NCBI GenBank assembly: GCA_963771795.1
Contig: CAVYUR010000002.1
Coordinates: 23,557-87,556 of the forward strand
From: an uncultured Chloroflexia bacterium
GTDB taxonomy: Bacteria; Chloroflexota; Limnocylindria; Limnocylindrales; CSP1-4
Reading direction: 5' to 3'
Length of the DNA stretch: 64,000 nt
Below are positions 6,143 to 16,479 of the stretch, piece after piece. The notes beneath the pieces are model-generated. The model had not been told where the DNA came from and ran no database searches. It saw only the letters and a list, made by a program, of their open reading frames with translations. Position 1 is the first letter of the stretch, and each line of letters opens with the position of its first letter. Made by a program: the position numbers and the translations under genes.

Positions 6143-7764
6143 CGGCGGCGCCGGGCGATAGACGGCGCAGCGATCTCTCGACGCTCGCGAGCGAGAGCTT
6201 CGACGTCCTCGTGGTCGGCGGCGGCATCGTCGGTTGCGGCGCGCTGCTGGATGCAACGTCGCGTGGGCTCCGGGCGGCGCTCGTCGAGCGTGAGGACATC
6301 GCCGTCGGCACGTCGAGCCGGTCGTCGCGCCTGATCCACGGCGGGCTCCGCTACCTCGAGCAGTTCCGGATCCATCTGGTCCGCGAGGCGCTGGCGGAGC
6401 GCGCACGGCTGCTACGACTGGCACCCCATCTCGTCCGGCTCGAGCCGCTCCTCTTCCCGCTCTACGGGCGACCCGTGGTGACGCGCGCGTTCTACGAGGC
6501 GGGCATGACGCTCTATGACGTCCTCGGTGCCCGTCGCGACGGTGGCTGGCATCGCCACCTGTCGGCCGCGGAGACGATCGAGCTCAGCCCGACGGTTCGT
6601 TCGGCCGGCCTTCGAGGCTCGCTCATCTACCACGACGGCGTCGAGGATGACGCGAGATATGCGTTGACGGTGGCCAGGACGGCCCAGCGATCCGGAGCCA
6701 CGGTTGTGACGCGGGCAGCTGTCGAGGGTCTTGTCGAAGAGGGCGGCCGGCTTGTCGGCGCGCGGGTCCGCGACGCGATCGGCGGCGATGTCCTTGAGGT
6801 CCGGGCACGTGCCGTGGTTGACGCGACCGGGGTCTGGGCTGCGGATCCATCCGCGCCCCTGTCCGGCGGGTCGACCAGGATCGTCCCGAGCCGCGGTGCC
6901 CACCTCGTCGTCCGTCGCGACCGGATCCCGAGCAGCGTCGGCCTGACCGTGCGGGTTCCGGGCAAGGTGGTCTTCCTCGTCCCGTGGCCGGGTCACTGGT
7001 TGATCGGGACGACCGATGCGCCGTACCACGGCCCGATCGATCGCCCGACGGCCGGCGTCGACGAGGTCGACGAGCTCATCGCCGCGGTCAATCGAGCGCT
7101 CGATGTCGACCTTGGTCGGGAGGACGTCGTCGGGACCTACGCTGGGCTGCGGCCGCTGATCGCGCCATCGAGCGGTTCGACCCTGACGGCGTCTCGAGAG
7201 CACCGGGTCGTCGTCGAGGCGAACCGGCTCGTCCGGGTCAGCGGCGGGAAGTACACGACCTACCGCGTCATGGCCCGTGACGCGATCGACGCGGCCGTTC
7301 GCGAGCTGGGATTCGAGCCGAAGGATCGGCCGAGCAGGACGGCCAGTCTCGCGCTCGTCGGGGCGACGGATCGCGAAGCCCTCGATGCGCTGGCGACCTC
7401 GCTCGCCTCGGCACATTCCCTGGCGCCGGCGGTGGCGACCCGGCTGGTCAACCGTCACGGAACGCAGGCTTCGGAGGTGGCGGCCGTCGGGGCGGGCGAG
7501 GGTCTGCTCAGCAGGCTCGGCCCGGAGATCGACCACCTCGAGGCCGAGGTCACGTGGGCGGCGCGCGAGGAGATGGCGCTGTCGCTCGACGACGTCCTCG
7601 CGAGGCGGATGCGGCTCGTTCAGGAGCTGCCGGATCGCGGGGCGTCGATCGTTCCGCGGGTCGCCGAGCTGCTCGGGCGGGAGTTGGGCTGGGACGAAGC
7701 CAGGCGAGGCCGCGAAAGCACCGAGTTCCTCGAATCCGCCCGACGCGAGTACGGGGTTCCATGA
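6139..7764 (+). CDS. glpD: FAD-dependent glycerol-3-phosphate dehydrogenase/oxidase
   Basis: DVLVVGGGIVG, GTSSRSSRLIHGGLRYLEQ, GLRPL, GGKYTTYR motifs. Confidence 0.92.
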   Translation: MTAAPGDRRRSDLSTLASESFDVLVVGGGIVGCGALLDATSRGLRAALVEREDIAVGTSSRSSRLIHGGLRYLEQFRIHLVREALAERARLLRLAPHLVRLEPLLFPLYGRPVVTRAFYEAGMTLYDVLGARRDGGWHRHLSAAETIELSPTVRSAGLRGSLIYHDGVEDDARYALTVARTAQRSGATVVTRAAVEGLVEEGGRLVGARVRDAIGGDVLEVRARAVVDATGVWAADPSAPLSGGSTRIVPSRGAHLVVRRDRIPSSVGLTVRVPGKVVFLVPWPGHWLIGTTDAPYHGPIDRPTAGVDEVDELIAAVNRALDVDLGREDVVGTYAGLRPLIAPSSGSTLTASREHRVVVEANRLVRVSGGKYTTYRVMARDAIDAAVRELGFEPKDRPSRTASLALVGATDREALDALATSLASAHSLAPAVATRLVNRHGTQASEVAAVGAGEGLLSRLGPEIDHLEAEVTWAAREEMALSLDDVLARRMRLVQELPDRGASIVPRVAELLGRELGWDEARRGRESTEFLESARREYGVP

Positions 7765-7815
7765 CGCTCGGGTCCCCCTCGATTTTCCCTCTGTACAAGA
7801 GAGTTCCAACGCGGG

Positions 7816-7949
7816 TAGACTCCCCCACGGAATGTCGCGGAAGCGTCCGCGACTAAAGAACGTAGCTCACCGACGACTCGGACTCCTCTCACGGCTGACG
7901 CGAGAAAACCCAGAGGGATCGCGCGGCTACCGAGAGGAGTTTTCGTTTC
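7816..7949 (+). promoter_or_regulatory. Promoter (-10 TAGACT) and structured ~120-nt 5' UTR with a sequestered SD
   Basis: Hairpin 7834-7853 (8 bp). ACTCCTCTC 7882-7890 is complementary to GAGAGGAGT 7932-7940, which contains the SD. Confidence 0.55.
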
Positions 7950-8363
7950 GTGTACAACGACAAGAATCTGACCTGCGCTGACTGCGGCCAGGAGTTCGTG
8001 TTCACCGCAAGTGAGCAGGACTTCTACGCACAGCGTGGGTTCACCGAGCCGCGCCGTTGTCCGTCGTGTCGCGCAAGCCGCAAGGCTGCCCGCGGTGCGG
8101 AGGGCGGCGGCAGCAGCTACGGCGGCGGCTACAGCGCAGGCGGCGGCTACAGTGCCGGCGGCGGTGGTGGCGGCGGCGGTGGCTACAGCAGCGGCGGTGG
8201 TGGCGGCGGCGGCTACGGCCGCGACCGTGGTCCCCGCGAGATGTTCGCAGCAACATGCTCGTCCTGCGGCCGTGAGGCCCAGGTCCCGTTCCGCCCAACC
8301 AGCGGCAAGCCCGTGTACTGCTCGGACTGCTTCCGAAGCCAGCGCGGCGGATCCAGCTACTAA
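7950..8363 (+). CDS. Zinc-ribbon protein (N-terminal zinc-ribbon + Gly/Tyr-rich linker + CxxC-x17-CxxC domain)
   Basis: DKNLTCADCGQEFVFTASEQDFYAQRGFTEPRRCPSC and ATCSSCG...FRPTSGKPVYCSDCF. Confidence 0.85.
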   Translation: MYNDKNLTCADCGQEFVFTASEQDFYAQRGFTEPRRCPSCRASRKAARGAEGGGSSYGGGYSAGGGYSAGGGGGGGGGYSSGGGGGGGYGRDRGPREMFAATCSSCGREAQVPFRPTSGKPVYCSDCFRSQRGGSSY

Positions 8364-8411
8364 ACCAGTCCTCTCGGCGCGGGCCATCGAGCCCGCCGAA
8401 CCACGTGATCC

Positions 8412-8440
8412 CGAGCCAGGTCGTCAGCCGACCTGGCTCG
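8412..8440 (+). terminator. Perfect 12-bp hairpin downstream of the zinc-ribbon gene
   Basis: CGAGCCAGGTCG-tcagc-CGACCTGGCTCG. The U-tail is poor (ATCGATTCT). Confidence 0.55.
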
Positions 8441-8492
8441 ATCGATTCTGAGTGGCGGGAATCTCGGCTGTCACGCCAGGACGATCAGGGCC

Positions 8493-8785
8493 GCGTTGCG
8501 GCCTGTGCTCCTCGCTCACGGACGTCTGAGTCCGTTCGCGCTTGGAACCAAGCACGCGCTTCGCGCGGCGGTGCTCGGACCGCGCCTTGCCCTGACCGCC
8601 CGGGCGCGACGAACGCAGTCGGCTGTCGCGTCTGGACGGCCGATCGCGGCGTTGACCGCTGCGCTCCTCGCTCACGGACGTTGAGTCCGTTCGCGCGTGG
8701 AACCAAGCACGCGCTTCGCGCGGCGGTGCTCGTGGTCGCCTTGCGCTCGACCATCCGGCCGCGACGAACGCCGTCGGCTGTCGTG
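8493..8785. repeat. Tandem duplication, period 155-156 bp, of a multi-hairpin unit
   Basis: Cores 8507-8577 and 8663-8732 differ by one indel and one substitution. The flanks are also homologous. Confidence 0.9.
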
Positions 8786-8801
8786 GCGGGGCACACTACC
8801 T

Positions 8802-8963
8802 GACAGATACCACCCTGTGTGGTGAGCGTCGGCACTGACACGCCCAACAGGGCTGGGACTGTGACGAATCCGGCTCAACCGGGCGCCATCAACACCCCGG
8901 GTGGTGGATGTCGTCAACTGGCGCCCGATCCGCGGTCACAAACTACGCGAGGTGGTATCTGGC
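8802..8963. repeat. Gene-less (solo) copy of the nuclease-associated repeat module, folded into a long inverted-repeat hairpin
   Basis: ACTACGCGAGGTGGTATCTGGC at 8942-8963, inverted copy at 8802-8823, GGGTGGT core at 8899. Homologous to 14329-14412 and 13472-13542. Confidence 0.8.
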
Positions 8964-8994
8964 GCCTACCTGGCGCCAAGCTGAACGACGGTAC

Positions 8995-9627
8995 TCAGCC
9001 GCCACGCCCAACGAGCAGCCCGAAGTCGAACTTTCGCTCCGTGCCATGGATCAGGCGGTCGATGTTGTCGGCGTGGGCTATCCAGACGATCGCCGCCGCT
9101 GCGGAGGCATAGAGCGGATACGCGCCGGAGATCGGCCCGTTTGCGGCTGCCCAGAGCCCCCAAGTGGCAACGGCCATCGCACCCGTTCCGAGCAACGAGC
9201 CCAGCGACACGTACCGAGTCAAAGCGACCGCGGCCACGAACACTGGCGCGGCGAGCAAGACGGCAACCGGCTGGATTGCGAGCATGCCCCCGAGATTCGC
9301 TGCGACGCTCCGTCCACCCCGGAGTCCGAGGAATATCGACCAGGTTGCACCGACCACCGCGGCCAGGGCACACAGGACCTCGACGGCGGCGCCCAGATCG
9401 AGGAGCCGGGCTACTAACACGGGGATCGCGCCTTTCAGCGCATCGCCGAGGAGCACGACGGCCGCTGGACCAGGCCCCAATGCTCGCAGCGCATTCGTTC
9501 CGCCTGTCCGTCCCGAACCAACCGTCCTCGGGTCCGCACCGCCGACCAGCCGCGCCACGGCAATGCTGATCGGGATGGATCCGACGAGGTATGACGCGGC
9601 CACGAGCAGGAGAGCCGATCCGTCCAT
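8995..9627 (-). CDS. plsY: Glycerol-3-phosphate acyltransferase PlsY
   Basis: YLVGSIP, DPRTVGSGRTGGTNALR, DALKG, GGRSVA, HADNIDRL..GTE. Confidence 0.9.
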   Translation of the reverse strand: MDGSALLLVAASYLVGSIPISIAVARLVGGADPRTVGSGRTGGTNALRALGPGPAAVVLLGDALKGAIPVLVARLLDLGAAVEVLCALAAVVGATWSIFLGLRGGRSVAANLGGMLAIQPVAVLLAAPVFVAAVALTRYVSLGSLLGTGAMAVATWGLWAAANGPISGAYPLYASAAAAIVWIAHADNIDRLIHGTERKFDFGLLVGRGG

Positions 9628-9725
9628 CCCGGGGCGAGTCTAGCAGCGGCGGATCTGCGGTCGGCCGCCATCAGACCCGTGTCGTCGGTTGCGCGGTTCT
9701 CGACGCCACGCGTACCATCGCCACG

Positions 9726-9788
9726 ATGACCCAATCGCCCGTCCGGCCGCTTGGCGTGCTCGGGATGCGGCCCGCCCGAGGCTCCTGA
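9726..9788 (+). CDS. Putative leaderless 20-aa upstream ORF (MTQSPVRPLGVLGMRPARGS) ahead of lpdA
   Basis: TACCAT -10 at 9713-9718, 7-nt spacer, ATG 9726. The stop lies 3 nt before the lpdA ATG. Confidence 0.4.
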   Translation: MTQSPVRPLGVLGMRPARGS

Positions 9789-9791
9789 CCC

Positions 9792-11234
9792 ATGGCCGTC
9801 GGCTCTTCCAACGACTTCGATCTCGTCGTGCTCGGCGCGGGTACCGGCGGCTACACGGCGGCGTTCCGGGCGGCCCAGCTCGGGCTGCGCGTCGCGCTCG
9901 TCGACGAGGACAAGATCGGCGGGACGTGCCTCCATCGCGGCTGCATCCCGACGAAGGCCCTGCTGGAATCCGCCGCGTTCACCGAGCGTGTCCGCCATGC
10001 CAAGGATTTTGGCCTGAAGCTGCCGGGCGAGGCCGAGATCGACTACGTCCAGATGGCCGCCCGCCGCGACCAGGTCGTCAAGCGGATGTGGACGGGGCTC
10101 AAGACGCTCGTCGACAAGAACAAGGTGACCTGGATCCAGGGTCGTGGCCGCCTCGATGGCCCCAACAAGATCCGGGTCGCCCAGGCCGGCGAGGATGGCA
10201 CCCCCGGAAAGGGCGGCGAGCGGGTCCTCCAGGCCAACGACGTGATCGTCGCTACCGGGTCGCGCGTCAAGTCGCTGCCCGGCCTCGTGCCGGACGGCGA
10301 ACGGATCCTGACCTCCGACGACGTCCTGCGCGCCGACAAGCTGCCGAAAGACGTGATCGTCGTCGGTGGCGGCGCGGTCGGCGTCGAATTCGCCTCGATG
10401 TACCACGACCTCGGCGTCAAGGTCACGCTTCTCGAATACCTGCCGGCGATCGTCCCGCTCGAGGATCGCGAAGTGAGCCAGGCGCTCGAGCGCAGCTTCA
10501 CCCGCCGCGGCATGACCGTCATGACGAACGCGCGCTTCGACGCGACCAAGGTCGACATCGAGAAGGCGGGCGTCTGCGTGATGGTCGGGCCGGAGGGCAA
10601 GGAGCCGCAGGAGCTGCGGGCCGACTTGATGCTGGTCGCAGCGGGACGGGCGACGAACGTCGAGGAGATCGGCCTCGATACGACGAAGGTCGAGGTCGAC
10701 AAGGGCATCATCAAGGTCGACGGCCGGATGCGGACGAAGGAGCCCCATGTATACGCGATCGGGGACGTCGTCGGCGGGCTGATGCTCGCCCACACCGCCG
10801 CGCACGAGGGCATCGTTGCAGCTCACACGATCGCCGGGGAGAAGGACGTCCACCCGATCGACTACGTGAAGCAGCCGCGGGCGACCTACTGCCGCCCGGA
10901 GATCGCCTCGATCGGGTTGACCCAGCAGCAGTGCGAGGAGCAAGGGCTGCCGATCAAGGTCGGCAAGGTGCCGTTCCAGGCGATCGCCAAGGCGATCATC
11001 GGCGGCGAGTACGAGGGCTTCACCAAGGTCATCGGCCACAAGGAGACGGACGAGACCCTCGGGATCCATATCATCGGCCCGCATGCGACGGACCTGATCG
11101 CCGAGGCATCGGTCGCGTTCGAACTGGAAGCGACGCCGTGGGAGATCGGCGGCGCAACGCACGCCCACCCGACCTTCTCGGAGGTCATGGGGGAGGCGGC
11201 GATGGCCGTTGACGGACGATCGATCAACTTCTGA
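9792..11234 (+). CDS. lpdA: Dihydrolipoyl dehydrogenase (E3)
   Basis: GAGTGGY, GGTCLHRGCIPTK redox disulfide, GGGAVGVEFA, HAHPTFSE. Confidence 0.95.
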   Translation: MAVGSSNDFDLVVLGAGTGGYTAAFRAAQLGLRVALVDEDKIGGTCLHRGCIPTKALLESAAFTERVRHAKDFGLKLPGEAEIDYVQMAARRDQVVKRMWTGLKTLVDKNKVTWIQGRGRLDGPNKIRVAQAGEDGTPGKGGERVLQANDVIVATGSRVKSLPGLVPDGERILTSDDVLRADKLPKDVIVVGGGAVGVEFASMYHDLGVKVTLLEYLPAIVPLEDREVSQALERSFTRRGMTVMTNARFDATKVDIEKAGVCVMVGPEGKEPQELRADLMLVAAGRATNVEEIGLDTTKVEVDKGIIKVDGRMRTKEPHVYAIGDVVGGLMLAHTAAHEGIVAAHTIAGEKDVHPIDYVKQPRATYCRPEIASIGLTQQQCEEQGLPIKVGKVPFQAIAKAIIGGEYEGFTKVIGHKETDETLGIHIIGPHATDLIAEASVAFELEATPWEIGGATHAHPTFSEVMGEAAMAVDGRSINF

Positions 11235-11253
11235 GCCGGCAGCGGAGGAGCTG

Positions 11254-12354
11254 ATGGCGGTGACATCCCGGACGCGCAAGGCGGCGGCAGCGCACCTCGG
11301 TGACGCGGTCGGGCTGTCCGACGCGCAGTTGCTCGAGATGTACGGCGTCGTCGCGCTCGCCCGGGCCGTCGACGAGCGGATGTGGATCCTCAACAGGGCC
11401 GGCCGGATCCCGTTCGTGATCTCGGGGCAGGGTCACGAGGGCGCCCAGGTCGGGATCGCCTGGGCCCTTGAGAAGAAGAAGGACTGGATCGCCCCGTTCT
11501 ACCGCTCGATCGCGACGTGCCTGACGTTCGGGATGAGCGCCCGCGACATCCTCACCGCGCAGTACGCGACCGCGAGCGACCCCTCGTCCGGCGGCCGTCA
11601 GATGCCGGGTCACTACGGCAGCCACGAGCACAACATCGTGTCGGTCTCCTCGCCGGTCGCGACCCAGCTCCTCCACGCCGTCGGGATCGCGCTCGCCGCG
11701 AAGATCCGCAAGACCGGCCAGGTCGCAATGACCTCGATGGGGGAGGGGAGCAGCAACCAGGGAGACGTCCACGAAGGGCTCAACTTCGCGGCGATCCACA
11801 AGCTGCCGTTCATCTTCGTCGTCGAGAACAACGGCTACGCGATCAGCGTGCCGCTGGCCCGCCAGGTCGCCGGCTCCAGCGTCGCCGATCGGGCGGCCGG
11901 CTACGGGATCCCCGGTGTCACCGTCGATGGCTCCGATGTCCTGGCCTGCTACGCCGCGTCGCGCGCAGCCGTCGAGCGAGCCCGGCAGGGCGATGGACCG
12001 ACCCTCATCGAGGCAAAGGTCACCCGCCTCACCGCCCACTCATCGGACGACCAGCAGACGAAATACCGCTCCGAAGAGGAGCTCGCCGCTGAGAAGGCAC
12101 TGGACCCGCTGCCGCTCTTCCGGGCGCAGCTCGCCGATGCGGGCGTCCTGACGCCCGAGGCGGAGGAGAAGATCGTCGCCGACATCACCGCCGCAGTCCA
12201 CGACGCGACCGAGTACGCGGAGTCGCAGCCGGATCCCGACCCCTCCACGGCGATGAAGTGGGTCTTCGCCGAGGACTGGCCGGGCGAGACGCCGCCGCCG
12301 TGGGGCTTCGGGAAGCCAGGCGTGGCCGAGGGCGAGGGCGAAGGCGCCCACTGA
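11254..12354 (+). CDS. bkdAA: 2-oxoacid dehydrogenase E1 alpha, branched-chain (Bacillus BkdAA-like)
   Basis: MWILNRAGRIPFVISGQGHEGAQVG, TPP motif GEGSSNQG...VENNGYAIS, AHSSDD. GGAGGAG SD before ATG 11254. Confidence 0.75.
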   Translation: MAVTSRTRKAAAAHLGDAVGLSDAQLLEMYGVVALARAVDERMWILNRAGRIPFVISGQGHEGAQVGIAWALEKKKDWIAPFYRSIATCLTFGMSARDILTAQYATASDPSSGGRQMPGHYGSHEHNIVSVSSPVATQLLHAVGIALAAKIRKTGQVAMTSMGEGSSNQGDVHEGLNFAAIHKLPFIFVVENNGYAISVPLARQVAGSSVADRAAGYGIPGVTVDGSDVLACYAASRAAVERARQGDGPTLIEAKVTRLTAHSSDDQQTKYRSEEELAAEKALDPLPLFRAQLADAGVLTPEAEEKIVADITAAVHDATEYAESQPDPDPSTAMKWVFAEDWPGETPPPWGFGKPGVAEGEGEGAH

Positions 12355-13337
12355 TGCCGACCAAGACCTTCATCGAGGCGATCCGCGAGGGCCTGCGCGA
12401 GGAGATGGCCCGAGACGAATCGGTCATCGTCCTCGGCGAGGACGTCGGCAAGAAGGGCGGCGTCTTCCTGGTCACGGACGGGCTGTGGGCCGAGTTCGGT
12501 GAGGAGCGGGTCATCGATACGCCCCTCACGGAGTCGCAGATCATCGGAACCTCCATCGGGGCATCGATCAACGGGCTCCGGCCGGTCGCCGAGATCCAGT
12601 TCGCCGACTTCATCTTTCCGGCCTTTAACCAGCTCCTCTCCGAAGCGGCCCGGATGCGCTACCGCTCGAACAACGGTTACGGCCTGCCGATGACGGTTCG
12701 GGCGCCGTACGGCGGCGGCGTCCACGGCGCGCTCTATCACAGCCAGTCGGTCGAGGCGTTCTTCACCCACATCCCCGGACTGAAGGTCGTGATCCCGTCC
12801 ACGCCGTACGACGCCAAGGGCCTGCTCCGCTCGTCGATCCGCGACGAGGACCCGGTCCTGTTCTTCGAGCACAAGAAGATGTATCGGAGCGTGCGCGGCG
12901 ATGTCCCGGACGGCGAGTACAGCGTGCCGCTCGGCCGGGCCGCGGTGACTCATCCAGGGACCCAGGTGACGGTCATCGCCTACGGACTGATGGCCCACTA
13001 CGCGCTCGAGGCCGCCGACCGGGTCGCGGACGAGGGGATCAGCGTCGAGGTCGTCGACCTTCGGACGCTCCGCCCGCTCGACAAGGAGACGGTCCTCGAT
13101 TCGGTCCGCAAGACCGGCAAGTGCCTCGTCGTCTACGAGGACAATCGCTTCGGTGGGTATGGCGCGGAAGTTGCCGCGATCGTGGCCGAGGAGGCGTTCG
13201 ACTACCTCGATGGCCCCGTGTCCCGGATCGCCGGCCCGGATGTCCCGAGCGTCCCGTACAACCACGCGCTCGAGGACTGGTTCATGGTGAACCCGGAGAA
13301 GATCGCCGACAGCATCCGGAAGCTCGCCGCGTACTAG
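12354..13337 (+). CDS. bkdAB: 2-oxoacid dehydrogenase E1 beta, branched-chain type
   Basis: GEDVGKKGGVF, DTPLTES, EIQFADF, GGGVHGALYHSQS. ATG overlaps the E1 alpha stop. Confidence 0.8.
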   Translation: MPTKTFIEAIREGLREEMARDESVIVLGEDVGKKGGVFLVTDGLWAEFGEERVIDTPLTESQIIGTSIGASINGLRPVAEIQFADFIFPAFNQLLSEAARMRYRSNNGYGLPMTVRAPYGGGVHGALYHSQSVEAFFTHIPGLKVVIPSTPYDAKGLLRSSIRDEDPVLFFEHKKMYRSVRGDVPDGEYSVPLGRAAVTHPGTQVTVIAYGLMAHYALEAADRVADEGISVEVVDLRTLRPLDKETVLDSVRKTGKCLVVYEDNRFGGYGAEVAAIVAEEAFDYLDGPVSRIAGPDVPSVPYNHALEDWFMVNPEKIADSIRKLAAY

Positions 13338-13375
13338 CGGCTAGTTGCCGAGGAGCGCCCGCAGGCCGCGGCAGC

Positions 13376-13489
13376 CGCCACCTACCACCCCGAGTAGTCG
13401 ATGACGCGCCGGGACGACACCACGGCGCTCCACCGAGCCCGGAATCCCCGGATCCTGCCGTCATGCTCCGTTCGGGGTGGTAGATGGCG
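13376..13489. repeat. 18-bp inverted repeat (1 mismatch) built from the same motif family
   Basis: CGCCACCTACCACCCCGA at 13376-13393 versus TCGGGGTGGTAGATGGCG at 13472-13489. Confidence 0.85.
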
Positions 13490-14412
13490 ACATATTGAGG
13501 GGACGAACAAGGCAACAACTACGCGGGGTGGTATCTGGCACTAGCCCGCACCCCGGATAACCGGGAGTAGAGAGCCCGCCGCCAAGATCGGCCGATGGAT
13601 GACGTGCGCGTGGGCCGGCTCCTTCGTGCCATGCGGCTTCGGCTCGGATGGACACAGAAACGGCTGTCGGCGCGCAGCGGCGTAAGCCAACAAGAAATCT
13701 CGCTGTTCGAGCGCGGACACGTGGACCGTGCGCCGATTCGACTTGTCCGCACCGTGTTCAAGGCGCTCGACGCCAGCGCTGACTTCGACATTCGCTGGAG
13801 GGGCGGCGGCATGGATCGGTTGCTCGACGACCGACATGCCGTACTTGTCGCCGCGGCCGGCTCGTTGCTCGCACGTGCTGGTTGGGAGGTGCTGCCCGAG
13901 GTGTCGTACAGCAGGTTCGGTGAGCGTGGGTCGATCGACCTCGTTGCCTGGCATGCACCTACGAGAACCCTCCTCGTCGTCGAGGTGAAGTCGGAGCTGA
14001 CATCGCTCGAGGCAACGCTCCGGAAGCACGACGAGAAGGTGCGCCTCGGCCCGGAGGTAGTAGCAGAGAGATACGGCTGGCGGCCAGTGAAGGTGGCGCG
14101 ACTCCTCGTATTGCCGGATAGCCGAACCGCCCAACGCCGGGTGGCCGGCGCCGACAGCGTCCTGCAACGGGTATATCCGGCGCGCGGCTGGACCGTCCGG
14201 CGATGGCTCAAGGCTCCGATCGGGCGTGGCGATGGGCTCATCTACCTGCCAATAACCGCCCCACGTAGTCGAAGTCGAGCTTCGGAACGATGAAGGAGCC
14301 GGATTCGGCGCGGATCGCCCAAGGTGCACGCCATCCACCATCGAGGGTGGTGAGCGTCATCCAGTTGCCGACAGGATCTCGGCAGTCACTACGCGGGGCG
14401 GTATCTGGCACT
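13472..14412 (+). mobile_element. Candidate nuclease cassette: direct-repeat modules 870 bp apart flanking an HTH-nuclease gene
   Basis: ACTACGCGGGGYGGTATCTGGCACT at 13518-13542 and 14388-14412 (24/25 identical), with upstream GGGTGGT cores at 13475 and 14345. Mobility is inferred, not shown. Confidence 0.55.
13595..14293 (+). CDS. XRE-family HTH fused to a PD-(D/E)XK-type nuclease domain
   Basis: N-terminal LLRAMRLRLGWTQKRLSARSGVSQQEISLFERG (XRE HTH). C-terminal GWEVLPEV...GSIDL...LLVVEVKSE (E, D, ExK catalytic pattern). Confidence 0.75.
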   Translation: MDDVRVGRLLRAMRLRLGWTQKRLSARSGVSQQEISLFERGHVDRAPIRLVRTVFKALDASADFDIRWRGGGMDRLLDDRHAVLVAAAGSLLARAGWEVLPEVSYSRFGERGSIDLVAWHAPTRTLLVVEVKSELTSLEATLRKHDEKVRLGPEVVAERYGWRPVKVARLLVLPDSRTAQRRVAGADSVLQRVYPARGWTVRRWLKAPIGRGDGLIYLPITAPRSRSRASER

Positions 14413-14423
14413 CGGGCGCCGAG

Positions 14424-15599
14424 TCACGGGCGCGACGCAGCGACTGAGACACGCAACGGGCGACCGAGGAATGCCGCCAGGCGATCCGCCTCGTCCTTGA
14501 GCTCAGGCCGGGCACCGCCGCGCCAAGAGAAGAATGGCGTGACCGCGATCGTGCCCGAGCCGCGCTTGGCAGCCTCGATCTCCCAGGTTCCGGCGACCCG
14601 GCCGTCGATGACGACGACCGGCGTGACCCAGCCGGCCGTCCGATGGACGCGGTCGTGGTGGGCGTTGCCCAGCACGGAGTCGACCCGGCGTGGCAACTCG
14701 TTGGTGAACGGATCGAAGCCCGGTAGGAGTCGAGCCTCGTGGATCGGCTTCACCGCGGCGAGCGCGGCGACATCCTCGCCGCGCACCAGACCCCGGATGC
14801 CATCGACGTCGACCTCAACGATCGGATCGGTCATGACCTTGAGCGCCCGCGTGACTGCCGCCATGCGCCCGCCGCCCCACCAGCGGGCGATCATCTCGCG
14901 GCTGGCGCCCGGGAAGACCGCGAGGTAGCGCTCGATGAGCCGCCCCAGCGCGTGGTCCGCGGCTTCCGGATCCTTGTCCGGTGCAATACGCCGGCCGAGC
15001 CACTTCGAGGGATCGACGAATGCAACGTTCCGGCCGTCCGACGGGCCGAAAATCAACCGACCGCGCTGCGCGGCCGGGCCAAGGAACGTTCCCCAGCCGG
15101 TCAGCATGTCCTCGCGCAGATGGGGTCTCTTGACGCGCTTCACCACCGCGTCCACGACCTCGACGCGGGTCATCGGGCGGTCTGACAGCCCGTTGCCGAT
15201 GGCATCGATCACCTCGGCCACGCCCGCCTCGGTCATCTTGAAATAGCGCAGCCAGACCGGCGTGTGCCAGCGCTCGAGGCTCCGTGCGGCGACGACGAAT
15301 TCCTCAAGATCGTCCGGGCTGAGCAGGTGCAGGGTCTGGCGGAAGGCCCAGACTTTGACGAGGCTCCGGCGCTCCCACAGCGCATCCCGCACATCCGCGG
15401 GTCGCAGCCCGTCGATCCTGGCGGCTGCCTGGAGTTCCGCCGAGCTCAGCACCTGGGCGTGGAGGCCGACCATCCGGGCGACGACATCGACGAGCTCGTC
15501 CCGCTTCGCCCGGTTGGTGATGCGTTGGCGCTGGAGTCGAAGCGTCAGGACCTGGGGCCAGGTCGTCGAAAGGGCCGGTGGGGCGGCTGGCTTCGGCAT
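14424..15599 (-). CDS. Winged-helix DNA glycosylase, AlkZ/YcaQ (HTH_42) family
   Basis: GLHAQVLSSAELQ, VKVWAFRQTLHL, RLLPGFDPF, PVVVIDGRVAGTW. Confidence 0.75.
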   Translation of the reverse strand: MPKPAAPPALSTTWPQVLTLRLQRQRITNRAKRDELVDVVARMVGLHAQVLSSAELQAAARIDGLRPADVRDALWERRSLVKVWAFRQTLHLLSPDDLEEFVVAARSLERWHTPVWLRYFKMTEAGVAEVIDAIGNGLSDRPMTRVEVVDAVVKRVKRPHLREDMLTGWGTFLGPAAQRGRLIFGPSDGRNVAFVDPSKWLGRRIAPDKDPEAADHALGRLIERYLAVFPGASREMIARWWGGGRMAAVTRALKVMTDPIVEVDVDGIRGLVRGEDVAALAAVKPIHEARLLPGFDPFTNELPRRVDSVLGNAHHDRVHRTAGWVTPVVVIDGRVAGTWEIEAAKRGSGTIAVTPFFSWRGGARPELKDEADRLAAFLGRPLRVSVAASRP

Positions 15600-15648
15600 C
15601 GCCAAATGATGCCGTCTCGACCTGACATGGTTTGTCAGGTACGGCGCG

Positions 15649-16479
15649 TCAGATCTCGACGGCGCCCTGGATGCACGTGATCGTCCCGCCGCCGACCCAG
15701 ATCGTGCCCTCGGGATCCTGGCTGATGTGAGCTCGGCCGGCGCGGCCCAGCGCGGTGCCCTGGCTGGCGATGTACGGCGCCCGGGCCCGTCCGGTGCCCA
15801 GCAGCCAGCCGGCCAGCGAGGCGTTGAGGCTGCCCGTCACGGGGTCCTCGACCGTCGCGCCGTTGAGTGGGAAGAACGCCCGGACCTCGAAGGCGGCCGA
15901 TCCGCCGGCCGGATAAGGCCCGACGACGCCCAGGTCAAGGTCCACGAAACCCGGCTGGAGCGCCAGGACCTCGGCCGCCGACGACAACAGGACGGCGACC
16001 CAGCCCGGTCCGTTGTCGACCCACTGGCCCTCGACGATCGCCTCGCGCGGGATCCTGAGTACGTCGGCGATGTGGGCGATTGTCGGTTCGTCGACCGGCC
16101 CATCGCGGACGAGCGGCGGCGCCGCGAATGCGAGTCCGTCTGCGGATCGTCGGATTGGAATCAGGCCCGCCGGGCACTCCTGGACGATCAGAGCGGGGTC
16201 CCGGGGCAGGCCGCCCGCCTCGAGCCAGGCGTGGCATGTCCCGAGGGTCGGGTGCCCGGCGAATGGCAGCTCCTGGCCCGGCGTGAAGATGCGGACACGG
16301 TAGTCGGCCTCTTCCGAGGTGGTCGGCACGATGAACGTCGTCTCGGAAAGGTTCGTCCATTGAGCGAACCGCTTGAGCGTGGCATCGTCGATTCCGGAAG
16401 CGTCGAGGACGACCGCGACCGGATTGCCGCGGTACGGCTCCGTGGTGAAGACGTCGACCTGACTGAACGCGCGTCGCAT
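15649..16479 (-). CDS. PhzF-family isomerase/epimerase
   Basis: QVDVFTTEPYRGNPVAVV, NLSETTF, ELPFAGHPTLG, EDPVTGSLN. Start reassigned to ATG 16479. Confidence 0.88.
   Translation of the reverse strand: MRRAFSQVDVFTTEPYRGNPVAVVLDASGIDDATLKRFAQWTNLSETTFIVPTTSEEADYRVRIFTPGQELPFAGHPTLGTCHAWLEAGGLPRDPALIVQECPAGLIPIRRSADGLAFAAPPLVRDGPVDEPTIAHIADVLRIPREAIVEGQWVDNGPGWVAVLLSSAAEVLALQPGFVDLDLGVVGPYPAGGSAAFEVRAFFPLNGATVEDPVTGSLNASLAGWLLGTGRARAPYIASQGTALGRAGRAHISQDPEGTIWVGGGTITCIQGAVEI

Follow-up and report, generated by a model that had tools for sequence, protein, structure and literature searches.

Analysis of a 64,000-nt stretch of DNA (hereafter the window) reveals that the segment at positions 8802–8963 on the + strand (E1, 162 nt) is a full-length, gene-less member of a family of inverted-repeat elements of about 163 nt. 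The family is linked to the 3′ end of a nuclease gene, its presence at the plsY site differs between related genomes, and its arms are conserved above its interior. We lean towards the reading, which we consider somewhat probable, that E1 is an ancient, nuclease-cognate member of this family, whose copies are REPIN-like sites at the level of DNA.

The + strand of the window corresponds to the reference orientation of the family, and all features of E1 given here are on this strand. The left arm (8802–8830) starts with the tag GACAGAT (8802–8808; family consensus GCCAGAT), which is followed by a palindrome made of ACCAC (8809–8813), the loop CCTGT and GTGGT (8819–8823), and then by GAGCGTC. The right arm (8935–8963) consists of GTCACAA, a palindrome made of ACTAC (8942–8946), the loop GCGAG and GTGGT (8952–8956), and the tag ATCTGGC (8957–8963). 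Once the outer tag bases (CT...GC) are counted, E1 spans 8800–8965. A central CGAATCCGG-type motif is present at 8864–8882, where GAATC (8866–8870) precedes a small CCGG-CTCAA-CCGG hairpin; this motif recurs as GAATC or GATTC in most of the copies inspected. The internal hairpin GCCATCAACACC-CCGG-GTGGTGGATGTC (8885–8912; consensus pairs 83–94/103–114) is conserved in orthologues and mimics both terminal 13-nt blocks in a head-to-head fusion. A CRISPR-like reading of the 51-bp spacing was considered and rejected, because this spacing is merely the constant distance from the 3′ half of the internal hairpin to the right arm.

The window belongs to a 2.8-Mb MAG (G000, the source assembly; 69% G+C, 83% complete), and the labels G003, G004, G018 and so on denote relatives of the same genus. 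Scanning of the G000 assembly with the arm sequence recovered further copies, and the copy number in this genome is seven. In G004 about 25 arm matches are present, paired at 130–165 nt. Eleven full copies were aligned over 164 columns (alignment A1) and a covariance model was built from this alignment. The model detects the family in 18 of the 43 genus genomes, with 1 to about 20 copies per genome. We gathered 84 distinct copies with their flanks from the genus genomes, about 74 of them gene-less; the hosts are Chloroflexota/Candidatus Limnocylindrales MAGs, mostly from soil. Read on the + strand of the window, the left arm in alignment A1 is GCCAGATACCACC-NNNN-GTRGTGA.GTC. Next come a stretch of variable sequence in which a CGAATCGG-type motif recurs, an internal hairpin (GCCAttcACCAcC-loop-GGaTGGTgaaTGGC) in which the two terminal 13-nt blocks stand head to head, a spacer, and a right arm mirroring the left one. 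The arm unit in E1's family comprises a conserved terminal tag, (C)TGCCAGAT, and the short palindrome ACCAC-N5-GTRGT. Between the two arms 73.9% of the cells are paired, compared with 34–49% in slid controls.

Three full copies are located in the window, all on the + strand. Besides E1, these are E2 (13377–13541, 84 bits), which ends 54 nt upstream of the nuclease start, and E3 (14248–14411, 96 bits), whose left arm (GCCAATAACCGCCCCACGTAGTCGAAGTCG) codes for the C-terminal tail of the nuclease, a disordered segment. With E2 and E3 in the window and 84 copies in the genus, the existence of other copies, as supposed in the preliminary description of this DNA, is confirmed. That description had also aligned 8884–8963 with 14329–14409, and the alignment is sound (57 of 80 positions identical; score 80 against 17 ± 7 in shuffles). 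It extends to the entire 8802–8963 against 14248–14409, which makes E1 a full copy rather than a half copy. What had been taken as a half copy 3′ of the nuclease gene is actually the whole copy E3, with its left arm inside the gene. In G008, tandem pairs of elements with a period of 202–205 nt and 81–86% identity (L176 on C218, 1201–1566; L177 on C273, 1201–1558) form small clusters reminiscent of BIME-type arrays. We also observed a sub-family of 152 nt, three copies of which (L165, 1386–2462, in G054; L067 and L069 in G004) adjoin paralogues of a gene of about 360 codons whose product ends in ...LTELWNEWGVVRPLLLAAD.

The fold of E1 was described earlier as a set of nested stems, and all of these are real: TGTGAC (8860) with GTCACA (8935), GGGCGCCA (8881) with TGGCGCCC (8919), and the inner CACC..GGTG. 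The outer stem (8804–8823 with 8942–8961) contains 16 Watson–Crick pairs, three G:U pairs and one C:A pair. The calculated folding energy is −74 kcal/mol for the + strand and −77 kcal/mol for the − strand, values that are modestly unusual (z = −2.06 and −1.94, respectively). Fold energy alone is weak evidence, and it is membership in the family that places E1 beyond chance. The covariance-model score of E1 is 127 bits (E = 8e-28; model positions 1–163), and the window contains the 13-nt arm core six times, where 0.96 occurrences are expected. A hairpin arising by chance in ordinary intergenic sequence would agree with a fold z-score of only about −2, but the 84 family members, the 127-bit score and the conserved architecture refute it, and we assign it a negligible probability.

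E1 is situated between a gene for a treble-clef zinc-finger protein (7950–8363, +) and plsY (8995–9627, −), which are convergent. Its placement between convergent genes, regarded earlier as typical of REP-type repeats, therefore stands. Immediately upstream of E1, a non-coding unit of 155–156 nt is tandemly duplicated (window 8490–8800). The unit itself is conserved throughout the genus; its duplication is specific to this lineage, since G005, G055 and G009 have a single unit, likewise after the zinc-finger gene.

Comparison of the plsY site in 30 genus genomes reveals the element in three of them, namely G000, G004 and G018. In G009 the site is short and empty, with about 25 nt separating the upstream non-coding unit from the plsY stop. 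The variable occupancy of this locus among relatives, which the preliminary description had proposed to check, is thus real. G055 carries at this site an inverted-repeat element of about 150 nt from a different family (L107, about 1290–1505), with arms CCAACTTGCGTGGGA and GCAACTTTGGCC, so two families have occupied this intergenic location. The arms of the G055 element match the 3′ end of another nuclease paralogue of G000 (contig 6, around 1183957), and G005 has a remnant of the G055-type element. G005 and G055 have a plsY of 80% identity, yet neither genome has an element of E1's family.

Synteny of G004 with the window includes plsY, the genes for lipoamide dehydrogenase, E1-alpha and E1-beta, element E2, the nuclease gene and E3. 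G003 is syntenic from plsY up to the E2-nuclease-E3 cluster, with E2 and E3 present and E1 absent. Between G000 and G004 the nuclease is 81% identical at the protein level and plsY, 4 kb off in the same syntenic block, is 60% identical. In G019 (L208, 6732–6893) and G053 (L216, 6296–6457) the only element is the one that follows the E1-beta gene, in the position of E2, and the nuclease gene is absent from the locus; either the nuclease gene and E3 arrived beside a pre-existing copy, or the nuclease gene was lost here. At least six copies of G004 face short, empty intergenic sites in G000. Filled sites carry 15–60 extra unalignable bases compared with empty ones, at a genome identity of about 80%, and the intergenic flanks are too diverged for these pairs to give exact insertion boundaries.

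The presumed cognate protein is encoded at 13595–14293 (+) and consists of 232 amino acids with an XRE-HTH domain (Pfam HTH_31) and a nuclease domain of the PD-(D/E)XK fold. Residues D115, E130 and K132 are invariant in its C-terminal domain (D...ExK motif). The AF2 model has a pLDDT of 90, with values below 50 for the disordered residues 223–232, which form the arm-encoded tail. According to this model the protein fits the PD-(D/E)XK superfamily, with a predicted alpha-beta-beta-beta-alpha-beta core and the D...(D/E)xK residues. Foldseek matches include the R2 endonuclease domain, AF1548, XisH, Can2 and Card1, and weak profile matches are to UPF0102 and MTES_1575. The gene family is multi-copy, with 2–10 paralogues in 41 of the 43 genus genomes, and its 2463 metagenome homologues are annotated only as HTH regulators or as 'transcriptional regulator'. 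Some MAG records with the family (L224, L248, L271) are titled Verrucomicrobiia or Patescibacteria and are probably mislabelled bins. A CGCCAGA-like motif, akin to the terminal tag, is found 10–35 nt upstream of the starts of several nuclease paralogues (window 13575–13594; in G000 upstream of the paralogues at C6:888231, C2:135233 and C6:1184781) and could be an operator for autoregulation.

The left arm of E3 overlaps the nuclease gene, lying in its last 45 nt, and encodes the tail of the protein. This arrangement is present in G000, G004 and G003, as well as in five paralogues with 47–57% identity, and matches to the covariance model overlap the 3′ ends of eight nuclease genes (47–100% identity). 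Each of the five G000 paralogues that we inspected has an inverted repeat starting from its last codons, with an arm sequence of its own. In other species an inverted repeat from about codon 218 (ungapped, with at least 18 of 24 matches) is present at 30 of 76 loci, compared with 1 of 76 and 3 of 72 in controls, and a 5-bp palindrome without mismatch occurs in 10 of these 30 arms, compared with 10.7% of shuffled sequences. Across the paralogue families the tag (C)TGCCAGAT is kept, whereas the adjoining palindrome varies, its two halves changing together (ACCAC/GTGGT, ACGAG/CTCGT, TACGC/GCGTA and ATCGC/GCGAT). Constancy of the tag combined with variation of the palindrome indicates that the arm is a REP-like unit. 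Only this comparison across paralogues shows the change in the palindrome; within E1's family the half-sites are nearly invariant, which makes a comparison of the local arm hairpin with the inter-arm stem uninformative. Thus the earlier view of E1 as a gene-less copy of a nuclease-linked repeat is upheld, since E1 is a full-length member of the family in the covariance model. Four genomes (G054, G008, G024 and G018) have 8–11 copies each, and no arms of the E1 type were found on their 3–9 nuclease paralogues (best score 21 bits), which suggests that conservation of the arms may not depend on a resident cognate gene. These MAGs are 68–86% complete. Either the cognate gene is in the missing 14–32%, or the copies are recognised by a paralogue with other arms, or they persist with no caretaker at all.

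Comparison of G000 with G004 shows that positional orthologues are reciprocal best matches (E1 65%, E2 58%, E3 64% and the contig-1 copy 80% identical), which speaks for vertical inheritance after the two species separated. Over the four pairs, identity is 78% in the arms plus the internal hairpin (277/357) and 53% in the interior (157/295; Fisher p = 6e-11), so that the recognisable motifs are held while the interior drifts. Intergenic DNA around the orthologous copies is hardly alignable. Copies in G000 are only 63–67% identical to one another, which argues against recent movement or spread in this genome; G004 and G054 hold clusters at 82–86%. The preliminary description therefore overstates the current mobility of the element, and mobilisation in trans is an inference. 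In G004, L067 and L069 are 95% identical, but the similarity extends over at least 90 nt of the right flank and their neighbouring genes are paralogues, which suggests segmental duplication, and we rejected this pair as a case of recent transposition. For L070 and L163 (86% identical) the shared flank is limited to about 35 nt on the left; this pair may represent a real copying event.

The preliminary description took the G:U-tolerant differences as a sign of selection on a single-stranded structure. If so, the element might act as RNA, either as a structured piece of 3′-UTR (a terminator or stabiliser) between convergent genes or as a small RNA. The long hairpin that can form at −74 kcal/mol, the position of the element downstream of two gene ends and the three G:U pairs against one C:A pair on the + strand of E1 are all consistent with such a role. 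However, the excess of G:U in E1 alone is not significant (at least three of four by chance 5/16, about 31%). When 31 copies of confident orientation were compared without gaps at 30 arm positions, anchored at the terminus, G:U (68) and A:C (62) are nearly equal, and the only G:U excess comes from one column with G:T as its inherited consensus. A count on the covariance-model alignment gave 57 G:U against 18 A:C, but it was discarded, as it leans to the model's own pair scoring and to one inherited column. The minus strand folds equally well, and the claim of single-strand selection is not sustained. At arm position 20, which is polymorphic for R/Y, the combinations AT (10), GC (7), AC (7) and GT (7) reflect independence of the arms and no covariation between them, and stem positions 14–17, 20, 23 and 25–26 are often unpaired without compensation. 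Covariation between the arms above the slid controls does exist at positions 7, 12, 16–17 and 28. It separates sub-families, so that it is explained equally well by pairing in the hairpin, by both arms having the specificity of one protein, or by common descent. Neighbouring genes of the well-oriented copies are convergent in 12, tandem in 13 and divergent in 1 of 32 cases (crude gene calls), and the orientation of the element is unrelated to neighbouring transcription (tandem ++ 4 against −− 9). A search of Rfam 15 gave no match on 8802–8963 and three chance-level matches elsewhere in 7000–16000. The strand symmetry of these constraints would be expected of sites in duplex DNA, or of hairpins that serve to the same extent on either strand. 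Nothing suggests that E1 works as RNA, and we consider a role of this kind quite unlikely.

Two other explanations were considered. E1 could be an ordinary MITE of a DDE-type insertion sequence, with the nuclease gene being only a preferred insertion site. Terminal inverted repeats, the small non-coding size, the patchy distribution and the filled and empty sites between relatives are features of E1's family that resemble MITEs. However, direct repeats in the flanks are not enriched (8 words of at least 6 nt against 7.5 expected, and 4 of at least 7 nt against 2.2), with the caveat that old copies could have lost a target-site duplication. Candidate duplications, CTACCTG around E1 (within chance) and ATCGACTC around the contig-1 copy, are not kept in the G004 orthologues and were rejected as evidence. 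Arm scans of the whole G000 assembly matched short copies only, and an autonomous parent with a transposase between the same repeats was not found among them. The only gene that carries an arm lies outside the repeat pair and overlaps just the left arm, so the term 'MITE' used previously is not the best one. In addition, different nuclease paralogues have different arm sequences, which always begin at the same codon; an insertion preference alone does not account for this, and we judge this explanation to be very unlikely. Alternatively, the host may use the copies as regulatory or architectural sites (operators or nucleoid sites), bound by an HTH protein that has ceased to mobilise them, and the family would be a domesticated regulon. 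The conservation of the arms, as opposed to the decaying interior, in old positional orthologues, the persistence of copies in genomes without a cognate-armed gene, the age and divergence of the G000 copies and the GCCAGA-like motif upstream of paralogue start codons would all fit. Against it, the sites are located after gene ends rather than at promoters (1 of 32 between divergent genes), the catalytic residues of the nuclease are invariant, and sites have been gained and lost between species. We regard a domesticated regulon as unlikely, though worth bearing in mind.

The likeness of E1's family to REP and REPIN sequences is closer. In one account REP and REPIN copies are extragenic and lie mostly after convergently or unidirectionally transcribed genes (PMC3733652), and REPINs are described as lacking target duplications, as mostly inherited vertically and as having in each population a cognate gene flanked by its own repeat (PMC3116915; 10.1101/2022.05.22.493013). 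E1's family shares the unit of tag plus short palindrome, the longer hairpin made by two inverted units, the extragenic position mainly after convergent or tandem genes (12 of 32 convergent, 1 of 32 divergent), the lack of duplications, vertical persistence and a cognate gene carrying its own repeat. However, its partner is a protein with an XRE-HTH domain and a restriction-endonuclease fold instead of an HUH/Y1 transposase. No HUH/Y1 protein (RAYT, PF01797) was detected in G000, G004, G054, G008, G024 or G018; the same search was positive in six reference genomes used as control. The tag is (C)TGCCAGAT and not GTAG or CGTC, and the element is longer, at 163 nt, and has an internal mimic hairpin. 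REPINs occur in tens to hundreds of near-identical copies, whereas E1's family has seven copies in G000 and at most about 20 elsewhere, and its copies are diverged. RAYT genes are typically single-copy; the partner gene here has 2–10 paralogues per genome. Because of the lack of a RAYT, the few and diverged copies and the multi-copy partner, we classify the family as REPIN-like and not as a member of the REP/RAYT system. The nuclease frame ends inside the left arm, as in insertion sequences whose transposase frame runs into a terminal repeat; in contrast to these, both arms are 3′ of the nuclease gene and there is no enclosing repeat on its 5′ side besides the separate copy E2. PD-(D/E)XK endonucleases of the XisH and R2 types, which are linked to excision or insertion of elements, resemble the nuclease in the C-terminal fold only (E 6e-5 to 6e-3); they differ from it in genomic context and in the domain partner, which in the nuclease is an XRE HTH. 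We found no description of this pairing of nuclease and repeat in the literature on REPINs and RAYTs, on MITEs of Chloroflexota or on restriction-endonuclease-like proteins associated with repeats.

A mechanism for the REPIN-like reading can be proposed as follows. The gene-linked version of the element is located at the 3′ end of a small XRE-HTH/PD-(D/E)XK gene, with the left arm starting from about codon 218. The arms and the internal hairpin may be recognition sites in double-stranded DNA for a dimer of the cognate HTH-nuclease, and the nuclease or its ancestor may have spread copies of the element to intergenic positions on the 3′ side of genes, in a manner similar to RAYTs and REPINs. In this reading E1 is an old insertion, also present in one related species and inherited vertically since, with a decayed interior and with arms and internal hairpin still held by selection or gene conversion. 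Binding, cutting or copying of the elements by the nuclease is suggested by the linkage and by the co-variation of the arms with the paralogues. It is a tenable possibility, though one that we would not yet call probable, that the XRE-HTH/PD-(D/E)XK paralogues constitute, together with their repeats, a REPIN/RAYT-like system of Chloroflexota not described so far, in which the nuclease recognises, spreads and maintains the elements of about 163 nt and E1 is a long-lived, still-recognised member.

To our knowledge, no persistent short repeats of bacteria are better known than REP and REPIN sequences, which have hitherto been tied to one class of enzymes, the RAYT tyrosine transposases. Here their design is paired with a different kind of protein, a small helix-turn-helix nuclease. 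E1 takes the observation beyond a gene with a 3′ hairpin, as it shows that the element exists, persists and is conserved without the gene. If the link between nuclease and repeat is functional, systems of a repeat and its caretaker would have arisen more than once, and the paralogues would make up a family of nucleases with sequence specificity, the targets of which could be deduced from the genome.
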